From positions 1 through 64,000 of IMG/VR virus record IMGVR_UViG_3300012157_000001: 64,000 nt of DNA. One strand, written 5' to 3'. How positions within the stretch are numbered: the first letter of the stretch is position 1; every line of letters begins with the position of its first letter. Positions 1 to 32,811 of the stretch are shown here, in pieces. The position numbers and the translations under genes are program-made. A model generated the notes under the pieces. The model made no database searches. It saw nothing but the letters and a program-made list of their open reading frames with translations, and was not told the DNA's origin. The stretch is from a virus (lineage: Duplodnaviria > Caudoviricetes).

Positions 1-492
1 GGATTTCGCGGCGGCGGCGGTGGTGGACGTGGAGGTGGCGGCGGATTTCGCGGCGGAGGTGGCGGCGGATTTCGTCACGGCGGAGGTGGACATCACGGCG
101 GACACCGCCGAGGTCGAGGCGGCATCTTCGTTGGCGGCTCTCCCGCGTACTTCGCGCCGGGCTGGGGCTACCCGTACTGGGACGACTCGTACCCGCTGCA
201 GGTGGTCGTTCCGGAGAACTGCGAGGAAAGTGTTCGATCGGGCTGCTACCAGCGCTGGGGCCACGACGCCGCGAAGATGGCGAGCTGCGTGGCGGACGGA
301 TACAAGGGTTGTGGCCTTCAGGGAATCGGGGCGCTACCTGGATTTGGTCGGATGGGCGTAGCGGTCGCGGTTGCGGCCGTCGTGGGCGGCGCCGTCGGAT
401 ACTTCGCGACGAAAAAGCCCATAGTCGGTATCGCGGGCGCCGTGCTCGGCGCTACGCTGCCCGTCCTGGCCCAATCGCTGCCCGCTCTGTAG
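1..492 (+). CDS. 5'-truncated Gly-rich membrane protein (putative virion protein)
   Basis: Frame of ORF 202..492 is open back to base 1 (GFRGGGGGGRGG...); LQGIG/LPGFG motifs and two C-terminal hydrophobic helices. Confidence 0.7.
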   Translation, partial: GFRGGGGGGRGGGGGFRGGGGGGFRHGGGGHHGGHRRGRGGIFVGGSPAYFAPGWGYPYWDDSYPLQVVVPENCEESVRSGCYQRWGHDAAKMASCVADGYKGCGLQGIGALPGFGRMGVAVAVAAVVGGAVGYFATKKPIVGIAGAVLGATLPVLAQSLPAL

Positions 493-8166: not shown

Positions 8167-9786
8167 ATGACGTCACTCGGATCACTCGGGCCGCGTCTTC
8201 GACGTTCGAAGAGGAACGGAGTTTTCAGCGGACTCGGCGCAGCGCCGTCGCAGTGGACGGTCGATGCGCGCGTGAAGACGATGCAGGGTCAGCTCAATAC
8301 GGTGCTGGCCGGCGCAGGCTGCAGCACAAAGCTGACGACCGACGGCCTCATCGGGCCGGCGAGCTGCGGCGCGCTCGCGTGGGCGAAGGCACGCGGCGCG
8401 CCACCAGCGGCCTACGTCGCAGCGACGGCCGACATAGATGCAGGCTGCAAACCCTTCAAGCCTACCGCGCCGTCCTGCCCGGCGGCCGCTGCGGGGAGCT
8501 ATCCGTACGGGCTCCCGTTTCCCGTCGGAGTGAAGCACGATACTGCGTACAAGTGGCAGTACATGCTGAACAGCGAGCTCGGCGCGCGCGGGATGCCGAC
8601 CGTGCCGGAGGACGGAATCTTCACCACGGCGACGTGTAACGGGATGGGCGCGTTCGTACGCTCGTACAAGGCGGACCCGGACAACCCGACGCCTGACGAC
8701 ACGTTCCTGCAGCTCCTGAATCAATACCAGACCAACATCGTGTCCGCGTGCCAGGCGATGGCGATGCCGACCACGACGACGGCCGTCCCTGTGGTGGCGC
8801 CGGCTCCGGTTGCGCCGACCGTCAGCGGTGCGGATCTGATGAAGCAGCAGCAGACGATGCTGAATACTTGGCTCGTCAGCGTCGGCTACCAACCGATTCG
8901 CGTCACCGGAGCCTGGGACGGACCGACGTGCGGCGCCGGTCAATTCATGACCAAGACGCTACCGGACACGGACCCGACCAAGCTCGCGCTGGCAAAGGTG
9001 CTCGCGCAGATAAAGCCCCTGCTCGGCATGCCGTGCGGGGTCACCGTGACGCCGGTGGCGCCGATAAGGCCACCCGTTGCGCCGCCGACGAGCGCTCAGA
9101 TTCTGCAGATGCAGAAGCTCATCAACTCCGAGGTGCTGCGGCCCGGAGGCTATAAGCTGATCCCGGAAGACGGAAAGCTCGCGGCCGCTACCTGCGGCGC
9201 GGCGAGCGACACGGCATCTGCGGCGAGCATCGGTCGGATCAAGGTGTCGTCGACGCTCCAGACGTTGCTCAATCATCCGGGACTGCTTCCGGCGTGTCTT
9301 CCGATGAAGCCGTGGACGTTTCCGACGGTGGCCCCGGCCCCGGTGGCCGCAGGACCGTCACGTTCGCCAGCGCTTCCGCCGCTCAACCGAGACGGCGAGT
9401 GCGTCATCAACTTCGGACAGACGTACACCGAGATCGGCGTGCTGCAACAGCAGCTGAACGACGTCCTGGCTCAGAACGGATACAAGCCGATCCCGATAAC
9501 GAACAGGTGGGACGCCGCGACGTGCGGCGCGATGTTCGAGCTCGGCGGTAAGTTCTCGCCGCGGCCCTCGTCAGCCTGTCCGCACTACTACTCCGTGCCG
9601 CTTTCGTGCCCGACCGTCACGAAGCCAATGATCGCGCTGCCGCCTGCTCCGGTCGCCAAAAAGACGAACCTCGCGGTCCCGCTCGGTATCGCCGCGCTCG
9701 TCGGAGTCGCAGCCCTGGTCATCGCGAAAAAGAAGGGCCTGATTATGGCGGCGAAGGCCGCCGGACCCGCCGCTACAGCGGTGTAG
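8167..9786 (+). CDS. Membrane-anchored protein with about 5 Cys-containing PG-binding-like repeats
   Basis: Repeated Q..LN..L...GY.PI...G.....TCGA units; TM + KKK. Confidence 0.75.
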   Translation: MTSLGSLGPRLRRSKRNGVFSGLGAAPSQWTVDARVKTMQGQLNTVLAGAGCSTKLTTDGLIGPASCGALAWAKARGAPPAAYVAATADIDAGCKPFKPTAPSCPAAAAGSYPYGLPFPVGVKHDTAYKWQYMLNSELGARGMPTVPEDGIFTTATCNGMGAFVRSYKADPDNPTPDDTFLQLLNQYQTNIVSACQAMAMPTTTTAVPVVAPAPVAPTVSGADLMKQQQTMLNTWLVSVGYQPIRVTGAWDGPTCGAGQFMTKTLPDTDPTKLALAKVLAQIKPLLGMPCGVTVTPVAPIRPPVAPPTSAQILQMQKLINSEVLRPGGYKLIPEDGKLAAATCGAASDTASAASIGRIKVSSTLQTLLNHPGLLPACLPMKPWTFPTVAPAPVAAGPSRSPALPPLNRDGECVINFGQTYTEIGVLQQQLNDVLAQNGYKPIPITNRWDAATCGAMFELGGKFSPRPSSACPHYYSVPLSCPTVTKPMIALPPAPVAKKTNLAVPLGIAALVGVAALVIAKKKGLIMAAKAAGPAATAV

Positions 9787-31097: not shown

Positions 31098-31240
31098 GGG
31101 AGTTGACGCCAACTGAATGCGCTGGCAGCATTGGCTGCACGGTGCGCATCGTCAATGCGCCTGATCCTTGACAATAGGAGTGGTGGCTGCGCGTGCGAGC
31201 GGTCCATTGCCGCTCAAGGCCCCGGGAGCGCTCGCAGGAG

Positions 31241-32108
31241 ACAGCAGAGCCGGCGGAGCGGCATGGTTTCTCCGAGGTGGGTGGCCCAGGGCGGCACGCC
31301 CGATAGGGACGACCAGCAGATCTGGCGGAGCGGCGTTGTTTCTCCGAGCTACAGGCCAGAGATCAACCCCCCGGGATCTTCCTTAGCCAGCAGAGCCGGC
31401 GGAGCGGCGTCGTTTCTCCGAGGAGCCAATCGTCTGGCCTGCATCGAGGGTGATCTCCCCAACAGAGCCTGCGGAGCGGCGTCGTTTCTCCGAGGCACGG
31501 TAGGCAGGTGACTCAATGACTGTACCGCACGACCCAACAGAGCCGGCGGAGCGGCGTTGTTTCTCCGAGGTGGATATGGACCGCGGGATCGTCGCCTACG
31601 ACTTCGCGCCAACAGAGCCTGCGGAGCGGCGTAGTTTCTCCGAGCCGCGGGAATGGCCCGAGGGACCCCCTACCGTGGCGGCCAACAGAGCCTGCGGAGC
31701 GGCGTCGTTTCTCCGAGAAACGTCCCCCCTGGGCGTTGCCGAGACCCTCGTCTCCCAGCAGAGCCCGCGGAGCGGCGTCGTTTCTCCGAGCGCGATGCCT
31801 TTTCGTTCTACCGACGAGCAAGGTGGGCCAGCAGAGCCGGCGGAGCGGCGTTGTTTTCTCCGAGCCGATGTTCCAGTCGAACAGGGGCCTGCGGAGAGGC
31901 GAAATGTCTCCGACGTGATGCGGCTGCGTCGAGAGCCTGCGGAGCGGCGTGGTAGCTCCGAGGTGACGCGCGCAACGCGGAAAACGCCTCTCCACTCGAA
32001 CCAGCAGAGCCTGCGGAGCGGCGTGGTAGCTCCGAGTGGTGCGTCAGCACCGTCTTCGCACGGAACCCGTACCCAGCAGAGCCGGCGGAGCGGCGTTGAT
32101 GCTTCGAC
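31241..32108 (+). CRISPR. CRISPR-like array, block 1: 13 repeats, consensus CCARCAGAGCCNGCGGAGCGGCGTYGTTTCTCCGAG (36 bp); no cas gene in window
   Basis: Repeat starts 31241, 31313, 31387, 31459, 31534, 31609, 31682, 31755, 31828, cores at 31885 and 31933, then 32001, 32073; unique 36-39 bp spacers except two short ones. Confidence 0.9.
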
Positions 32109-32167
32109 CTTCGATCCAATCCATTGTGTTAGAGCGCGCCCTGCGCGGTTTCGGATATACTGGCGCC

Positions 32168-32329
32168 ATGGCTCAGAAGCGAAAAAAGAGCGGTCTGCCC
32201 AGCTGGTTTCCGTTCGCACTCGGTGCATCTGCGGTGCTCATTCTGTTCGCGGGTGCTCGATCGGGCTGGAGGACGAGCGCAACCCAGGGGACGCCGCTCC
32301 GTGGCTGGCCAGGTCGACGAATTGCATGA
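32168..32329 (+). CDS. 53-aa membrane peptide embedded in the array
   Basis: TATACT 6 nt upstream of ATG; MAQKRKKSGLPSWFPFALGASAVLILFAG...; stop abuts the next repeat. Confidence 0.5.
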   Translation: MAQKRKKSGLPSWFPFALGASAVLILFAGARSGWRTSATQGTPLRGWPGRRIA

Positions 32330-32739
32330 GAGCCTGCGGAGCGGGCGTTGTGCCTCCGACTAGTGCGCGTAGTGCATTTGAGCCAGCGGCGTGGCCTGGT
32401 GACGTCGAGCGGTAGTAGTCGGCGTTGGTCAAGCCCGCGGAGGGGCGTTCGCTACTCCGACATCAGTCATCCCAAGGCTAGAGCCGGCGGAGCGGCAAAA
32501 AAACTCCGAGACGTCGAGCATTACCGATTGGTGCCCGCAGCAAGAGCCAGCGGAGCGGCGTCACTGTCTCCGACAGGTTGCACCATCGTCTTTTAGCTCA
32601 CGGAGAGGCGCTGCCATCTCCGACCACCAGATGAGCGTCGCGGAGCCCGCGGAGGGGCGTTGTGCCTCCGGCGCCATGCCTGAGGCCACCTCCGACAGCC
32701 ACATCGTTCGAGCCCGCGGAGGGGCGTTGTGCCTCCGAG
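32330..32739 (+). CRISPR. CRISPR-like array, block 2: 8 divergent 30-31-bp repeat cores, mostly 18-21-nt spacers
   Basis: Cores GAGCC-NG-CGGAG-N-GGC-N7/8-CTCCG-AS at 32330, 32380, 32431, 32481, 32544, 32594, 32643, 32710. Confidence 0.75.
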
Positions 32740-32811
32740 AGCCTCTGCTGCGACGTGCCCGCGGAGGCGCCATTGACCCGCGTGTGCCACCGATGCTATC
32801 ACTGGCGGCAC

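Follow-up and report, generated by a model that had tools for sequence, protein, structure and literature searches.

The window, the whole stretch of 64,000 nucleotides (nt) analysed here, is the first 64 kb of one 179,401-bp phage genome (IMG/VR record IMGVR_UViG_3300012157_000001). The genome has a GC content of 64.6%, carries direct terminal repeats and is rated 100% complete in IMG/VR. The window contains a CRISPR array on the plus strand at 31241–32797 (array A), with a peptidase-M15-type lysis gene upstream. A second array (array B) lies on the minus strand at genome positions 144938–146346, directly downstream of the sole cas12m-like gene (genome positions 146430–148433, minus strand). 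Array B and this gene are co-oriented, and the first repeat begins 71 nt past the stop codon of the cas12m-like open reading frame (ORF) of 669–693 amino acids (aa). The gene is present in one copy in the genome and lies 114 kb from array A. Repeat cores were located by a motif scan for a 30-nt conserved core, and a repeat search returned the same copies. No copy of the core occurs outside arrays A and B in the complete genome. The two arrays are parts of one type V-M-like system in a complete phage, and the short units within them are the main subject here.

Array A contains ten spacers of 36–39 nt behind full 36-nt repeats and a second class of units, each made of a 28–30-nt repeat core and a gap of 15–22 nt (Table 1). 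The gaps between cores are, in order, 42, 44, 42, 45, 45, 43, 43, 43, 20, 18, 44 and 42 nt, followed by a 221-nt break. Past the break, the gaps are 20 (to a degenerate core at 32380–32409), 20, 19, 33, 19, 18 and 37 nt. The ten long spacers come out at 36–39 nt once the 5–6-nt 5' extension of the repeat is removed. In array B, fifteen canonical units are followed by a tail with gaps of 22, 20, 17, 20, 17, 43 and 15 nt and no embedded gene. When both arrays are pooled, the gap lengths fall at 15–22 nt (n=14), 33 nt, 37 nt and 39–45 nt (n=23), and none fall between 23 and 32 nt. An earlier sequence-only reading of the window had described two discrete length classes in array A. This description is borne out, as its ten spacers of 36–39 nt are exact, and the seven short gaps measured here (18–20 nt) and the two outliers (33 and 37 nt) agree with its list within 1 nt. 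The array begins at 31241, upstream of the start given in that reading (31865).

Table 1. Features of array A and its surroundings, in window coordinates.
Feature	Position	Strand	Details
Array A leader	31194..31239	+	Motif: inverted copy 31194–31205, direct imperfect copy 31224–31239; read from sequence
Canonical block 1	31241..31864	+	Nine 36-nt repeats, eight spacers A1–A8 of 36–39 nt
Two embedded short units	31865..31931	+	Guide A9 31865–31883 (19 nt), truncated core 31884–31914, guide A10 31915–31931 (17 nt)
Canonical block 2	31932..32108	+	Three repeats, two long spacers: A11 38 nt, A12 36 nt
Short guide A13 and decayed scaffold core	32109..32160	+	Guide 32109–32129 (21 nt), core 32130–32160
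Gene P0063 within array A	32168..32329	+	53-aa protein, one predicted membrane helix
Tail of truncated repeat-spacer units	32329..32739	+	Cores 30–31 nt; gaps 20, 20, 19, 33, 19, 18, 37 nt; guides A14a, A14b, A15–A19
Last short guide and degenerate terminal repeat	32740..32797	+	Guide 32740–32756, 17 nt
Downstream flanking gene P0062	32812..33405	+	197 aa, no family match on record; synteny anchor and neutral-divergence yardstick

Related phages carry the same layout. Short-read assemblies break within identical long repeats, and the divergent tails assemble along with flanking genes. Array B tails were obtained from L010 (Cas12m 87% identical), L037 (neighbouring SNF2 helicase 82% identical) and L041 (SNF2 helicase 99% identical). 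Array A was compared with sequencing runs X2 (soil, another study) and X5 and with locus L042, which has a flanking protein 96% identical and the entire distal part of the array. The two-class layout is found in both arrays of the phage and in relatives L010, L037, L041 and L042. No canonical long spacer of the phage is shared with its relatives, and none of the five long spacers of L010 matches those of the phage. A 12-mer match in a relative is found for 7 of the 14 short guides, versus 2 of the 24 long-class gaps, both of these being tail outliers. The check suggested in the sequence-only reading, whether short guides are conserved among related viruses while long spacers turn over, thus gives a positive answer: many short guides persist and the long spacers differ.

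This pattern is also seen unit by unit in array A. Run X2 has the same leader, followed by different long spacers. One X2 contig is identical at 133 of 134 positions over 31828–31961, which covers the A9 and A10 units, and its flank is about 86% identical. The A10 guide is identical in L042 (17/17) and is kept in X5 too. In place of the A11 and A12 long spacers, L042 and X5 have a single 23-nt spacer. The 221-nt break opens with a further short guide, A13, and a decayed core; in L042 the guide is identical at 20 of 21 positions and the adjoining core is intact. The last guide is identical at 16 of 17 positions in L042. The 33-nt gap consists of a 17-nt guide and the stump of a deleted core, and this core is intact in L042.

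Rates of change were compared between orthologous units paired by synteny alignment with L042. Guide positions 1–14 differ at 1 of 72 sites and positions 15 and beyond at 3 of 18. In the same alignment, scaffold loops differ at 29 of 79 sites and other unpaired scaffold positions at 21 of 65. Third codon positions of two flanking genes differ at 34 of 252. Guide positions 1–14 therefore change more slowly than synonymous sites (p=0.002), as do all guide positions taken together (p=0.019). The loops probably change fast through exchange (gene conversion) among cores. Because loop divergence may partly reflect such conversion and not neutral drift, synonymous sites are the fair yardstick.

The first short guide of array B, B15, is unchanged in L010 and L041; its L037 copy carries two distal changes, and in run X4 it is found at the end of a contig. 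At least the first 9–14 nt of four further guides are retained in one to three of L010, L037 and L041. The constraint on guides is unit-specific, and not every module is constrained. In no relative does a long spacer begin with the sequence of a short guide. The earlier view of the short units as older and of mature-guide length is supported, along with their conservation and purifying selection, but the idea that they were trimmed from long units is not upheld. The CRISPR parts are accessory cargo of the phage lineage.

The cores of both arrays can form the same pseudoknot, in which positions −28 to −25 pair with −18 to −15 and positions −23 to −19 pair with −7 to −3. These pairs are formed in 93.8% of cells across 53 cores from the phage and L010, versus 40–60% with slid partners. 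Covariation is found at one pair only (G-C in 11, C-G in 10), and the remaining pairs are invariant. In the tail cores, paired positions differ from the consensus at 2% and unpaired positions at 44%, a contrast inflated by the motif-based unit finder, which favours intact stems. Both helices are intact in about 20 tail cores. In the cores of some relatives (L002 12150–12253; L042 545–574), both partners of an A-U pair have changed to give C-G, which supports the 3' helix. The core at 32380–32409, degenerate in the phage, is intact in L042 with compensatory stem changes.

These pairs and lengths match those of characterized Cas12m CRISPR RNAs (crRNAs). In the PmCas12m crRNA, positions −28 to −26 pair with −17 to −15 and positions −23 to −20 with −6 to −3; a 17-nt guide is optimal, and activity drops past 20 nt (bioRxiv 10.64898/2026.03.26.714355). 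In the Cas12m2 crRNA, the 36-nt repeat part is ordered only from about −29, the 5' 7 nt are disordered and the heteroduplex is 17 bp (PMC10442227). Each short module of the phage consists of a 28–30-nt scaffold, a guide of about 14–17 nt and a few linker bases. Cas12m complexes use a guide of about 17 nt and, of the repeat, the scaffold between about −29 and −1, so that the short units omit only unused parts, namely 6–8 nt at the 5' end of the repeat and the distal spacer half.

The cas12m-like ORF has no match in Pfam or NCBIfam. In the PDB, phmmer matches it to Cas12m chain 23vw_A (2e-8). A profile of 27 metagenomic relatives (41–94% identity) matches 23vw_A at E=1e-28 and Cas12m2 (8hio/8hhl) at 5e-8. 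The best Foldseek matches of an AlphaFold2 model (predicted local distance difference test score 75; segment 608–632 of low confidence) are Cas12m2 8hhl (E=4e-13) and GoCas12m 8pm4 (8e-12), with a probability of 1.00 and template modelling scores of only 0.42–0.51. In the profile alignment, on which the assignment of these residues depends, the RuvC-I Asp is replaced by Arg (family consensus Glu) and the RuvC-II Glu by Gly. The effector sequence contains no CxxC pairs and no TNB zinc-ribbon motif between RuvC-II and RuvC-III as in Cas12m2. These two segments are only about 20 residues apart, and 23vw_A aligns through the same short linker. As 23vw_A is the closest PDB chain, the missing zinc ribbon is read as a subclade difference and not as exclusion from Cas12m.

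Cas12m proteins bind DNA and silence without cleavage (PMC11013384, PMC10442227). Judged from its sequence, the phage effector most likely acts by binding DNA and obstructing transcription or replication, without cutting. The sequence-only reading had proposed that the short units guide binding or silencing of host or viral genes, and an effector that apparently lacks RuvC catalytic residues fits the first part of this proposal. Two relatives of the effector were found in Joint Genome Institute (JGI) metagenomes. None were found in IMG/VR by a single-protein pattern scan, and a pattern scan of 185,579 GTDB species genomes found no relative of this Cas12m clade. Cas1 (PF01867) and Cas2 (PF09827) are not found in the complete genome, with control genomes positive (Cas4 was not searched for). 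Reverse transcriptase, the rve transposase (PF00665) and TniQ (PF06527) are likewise not found in the complete genome.

No guide matches the phage genome at three or fewer mismatches over 20 nt, and 10-nt seed matches to this genome number 26 for the guides and 29 for the reversed guides. Neither array has a BLAST match among 50,697 phage records, and BLAST against plasmids gives only matches at E=0.01–0.4. An exact scan of IMG/VR with the repeat pattern finds nothing, and the A13 and B18 guides have no exact match there. Against the loci of all relatives obtained, the guides give only two-mismatch matches at the chance rate; BLAST of the tail against five GTDB genomes gives only chance-level matches.

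A few candidates were set aside. The B15 18-mer has one exact IMG/VR match, in a viral contig of 35% GC, and the A9 19-mer has one, in a portal gene (L019). This number equals the chance expectation, and the two matches have no common protospacer-adjacent motif (PAM). In GTDB, A9 has 16 matches in unrelated genes (TonB-type receptors, transporters and others) that code the same hexapeptide with GC-preferred codons and have no common flank; these were rejected. Short guides as mutual paralogues were also set aside, as common k-mers occur mostly between orthologues. The lower GC content of the short guides (57% vs 65%) is not significant (p=0.06).

The reading favoured here, with a probability of roughly 0.6, is that the short units are truncated repeat-spacer modules whose guides are hard-wired and direct the phage's own Cas12m, which would bind DNA without cutting it. 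The canonical units, on the leader side and with quick turnover, would be the adaptive and disposable part. As the phage has no Cas1 or Cas2, their spacers are presumably added by host adaptation machinery in trans. The truncated modules, mostly at the distal end, would encode in DNA what the mature Cas12m crRNA uses. Published Cas12m structures and processing data suggest that, after cleavage upstream of each scaffold, a truncated module would need no 3' trimming. These modules are inherited and under purifying selection that is strongest in the PAM-proximal part of the guide, which is why they are read as hard-wired guides; their conserved targets would lie either in the host or in competing elements that recur. 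We infer their transcription, processing, loading onto the phage Cas12m and silencing activity, along with the nature of the targets.

Several points weigh against this reading, in addition to the inflated stem contrast given above. No protospacer was found for any guide of either class. The synonymous-site test is based on 72–90 guide sites from one relative. In array B, tail units are gained, lost or replaced among relatives, and by the same type of synteny alignment the guides are on average no more conserved than the loops; this lack of an overall excess is attributed to the reshuffling of units. Some modules are decayed, as seen in degenerate cores and in the fused 43-nt unit of array B, in which two short units were joined when a core, still intact in L010 and L037, was lost. 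The reading also gives no account of how units become truncated at the DNA level, and retro-copying of mature crRNAs is disfavoured, as no reverse transcriptase was found.

The interpretation given in the sequence-only reading is partly supported. Its view of the long units as ordinary spacers is supported by their fast turnover, with no canonical spacer found in relatives. Since no target was found for either class, the competing elements that it named for the long spacers and the host or viral genes that it named for the short guides stay conjectural.

It is possible, though tentative, that the Cas12m, predicted to be nuclease-dead, forms a built-in CRISPR interference (CRISPRi) system. About 15–20 conserved minimal guides would then switch off host genes (defence, physiology) or conserved genes of rival phages during infection, and the long spacers would form a separate adaptive layer. 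If this is true, the phage carries a virus-encoded, multiplexed, RNA-programmed set of repressors under selection and a natural "no-trimming" format for crRNA arrays.

The short units are unlikely to be viral crRNA-like regulators of the Cracr/Racr type, which would load on a Cas12m-type effector of the host and retarget it to promoters, its own or those of other host defences, or else act as decoys. Phages have been reported with multiplexed crRNA-like arrays that have degenerate repeats and shortened spacers and hijack host Cas proteins (bioRxiv 10.1101/2024.10.29.618823). Array A is distant from any cas gene, and the absence of a self or viral target is also consistent with such regulators. 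However, an effector encoded by the phage itself lies directly upstream of array B, and this array shares its scaffold and type of tail with array A. The pattern scan of GTDB species genomes found no relative of the Cas12m clade. There is no known host that would supply the partner. Conserved guides would also be needless for a pure decoy. The decoy RNAs against host Cas proposed in the sequence-only reading are therefore disfavoured, as the phage encodes a matching effector and the guide sequence is conserved, not the scaffold alone.

It is also improbable that the short units are old canonical units eroded by deletion at the trailer end, shared by descent and non-functional. Their leader-distal position agrees with such decay, as do the degenerate cores at 32130–32160 and 32380–32409, the units fused or truncated by deletion (33- and 43-nt gaps) and the gain and loss of units among relatives. 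Erosion is less congruent with gaps that are tightly clustered at 15–22 nt, with none of 23–32 nt. It also does not account for helices kept intact in about 20 tail cores despite 44% change at unpaired positions, for the compensatory changes in the L042 and L002 cores, or for guide positions 1–14 that change more slowly than synonymous sites.

Similarly improbable is a second adaptation ruler. In that case, the short units would be immunity spacers taken up by another integrase with short prespacers and a shorter repeat, comparable to the mini-integrase of types V-C and V-D, and the two classes would reflect two machines and not two roles. Types V-C and V-D have arrays with spacers of about 17–19 bp. 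The discreteness of the classes is consistent with this explanation, as is the 23-nt spacer in X5 and L042 where the phage has two long ones. The short guides, however, are the conserved part of the arrays and not the variable part. The cores of the short units also differ from one another in their loops and 5' ends, unlike freshly duplicated repeats, and the phage has no Cas1.

It is highly unlikely that the hairpin-rich tail is not a guide array but a structured element of RNA or DNA, such as a terminator or regulatory region that serves the embedded small gene and the gene downstream. The conserved 53-aa gene does lie inside array A, and promoter and terminator scans are decisive neither way. 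But the same tail architecture is found after array B, which is linked to cas12m and contains no gene, and the conserved pairing is exactly that of Cas12m crRNA scaffolds, with no Rfam match.

Several features of the surrounding sequence were also recorded. Between the stop codon of cas12m and the first repeat, a motif of about 14 nt is found in L001, L006, L011, L012, L013, L015, L016 and L017. It is kept in all relatives examined, down to 40% identity (for example, the L001 copy at 8397–8412, minus strand), and array A has an inverted pair. This motif could be a leader-anchoring or regulator-binding site. The embedded gene P0063 differs from its L042 counterpart at 14 third codon positions and 3 others, a pattern that marks it as a real gene under purifying selection. 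The P0063 stretch is identical at 327 of 330 positions in run X2 and at 224 of 228 in run X4.

Among the relatives, a 55%-identical one (L011 726–2328) has an IS200/IS605 pair (TnpB-like gene and Y1 transposase) a few kb upstream of cas12m. In L041 (685–4617), the counterpart of the SNF2 helicase that lies downstream of array B is 99% identical but split by an intein with a LAGLIDADG-type domain (1310 aa vs 885 aa). A related phage of 184,950 bp (L036) has no cas12m beside its SNF2 gene, and L047 has other genes at the position of array A. At the genome ends (window 1–200, genome 179200–179401), the terminal repeat lies within a glycine/arginine-rich repetitive coding stretch, and a tRNA-like 3' end is found just before the terminal repeat at the right end. 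Rfam and tRNA scans of the window gave no match, and the sequencing runs listed as containing such sequence include no RNA run.

The phage system shares several features with type V-M (Cas12m2/MmCas12m, GoCas12m and PmCas12m). These are the fold and sequence family of the effector, the 36-nt repeat, the pseudoknot pairs, the absence of adaptation genes and the 17-nt guide. By its alignment the RuvC site of the phage effector is also probably non-canonical, which would imply binding without cleavage. It differs in that the effectors of the phage clade are longer (about 669 aa), are 16–18% identical to solved Cas12m proteins, have no CxxC zinc ribbon and are phage-borne. A tail of truncated units is not described in the V-M papers PMC10442227, PMC11013384 and bioRxiv 10.64898/2026.03.26.714355. 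A phage-encoded Cas12m was first claimed in September 2026, with MvCas12m of myxophage MV-1, and that account does not mention short units (bioRxiv 10.64898/2026.09.14.751636). In both cases a phage encodes the Cas12m next to an array, cas1/2/4 are absent (in the present phage by searches for Cas1 and Cas2) and protospacers have not been identified. As described, MvCas12m is set apart by its length of 610 aa, an intact D-E-D triad and a single array of eight spacers.

The Cracr arrays and RNA anti-CRISPRs (bioRxiv 10.1101/2024.10.29.618823) are also phage-borne, multiplexed and compact, with degenerate repeats, and silencing rather than cutting is proposed for them. They differ in that the Cas proteins they take over belong to the host and in that they match promoters of host cas or toxin genes, whereas the phage encodes its cognate effector and its units have no known promoter target. 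The Cracr criteria are 9 or more PAM-proximal matches to the promoter of a host cas or toxin gene and reliance on a host Cas protein; the phage's own effector argues against such reliance.

By analogy of architecture, the closest known counterpart is the truncated repeat-spacer units (att-targeting crRNAs) of Tn7-CRISPR-Cas12k elements, the CRISPR-associated transposons (CASTs) of type V-K. The standard array of Tn7-Cas12k elements, with repeats of about 37 bp and spacers of 36 bp, presumably receives its spacers in trans (Hsieh and Peters, bioRxiv 10.1101/2021.02.06.429022), and the phage has a similar standard array. In both cases, a mobile element carries a type V effector that is nuclease-dead (in the phage, by prediction), no adaptation genes, and conserved truncated units beside variable array spacers. 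The units keep the effector-relevant 3' part of the repeat and a spacer of processed-guide length (about 17 bp), with cores of 28–30 of 36 nt and gaps of 15–22 nt in the phage. They lie at or beyond the distal end of the array and are conserved among relatives, and the phage adds two mid-array units. The phage, however, has 7–10 units per array and not one, and keeps 28–30 repeat nt and not about 13. Its effector is Cas12m-like, and no trans-activating crRNA is needed in the Cas12m family. The genome has no rve or TniQ, and no chromosomal attachment-site target was found in the searches. Given the likeness of the truncated units and the absence of Tn7-like genes, the phage units are read as working like the Cas12k units in a system that is not a CAST.

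If the short modules are functional, cleavage-dead type V systems borne by mobile genetic elements have split more than once into an adaptive array and private guides of mature length, in Cas12k transposons and in phage Cas12m. The modules would also offer a natural design for dense, trimming-free Cas12m guide arrays at about 48 nt per guide; Cas12m-based tools for CRISPRi and for base and epigenome editing are under development. The conserved guides would in addition be a handle on what an uncultured phage lineage must silence, with targets readable by simple matching once the host is known. The phage case differs from the Tn7-Cas12k units in its effector family, its blocks of seven to ten truncated units and the absence of transposition machinery.

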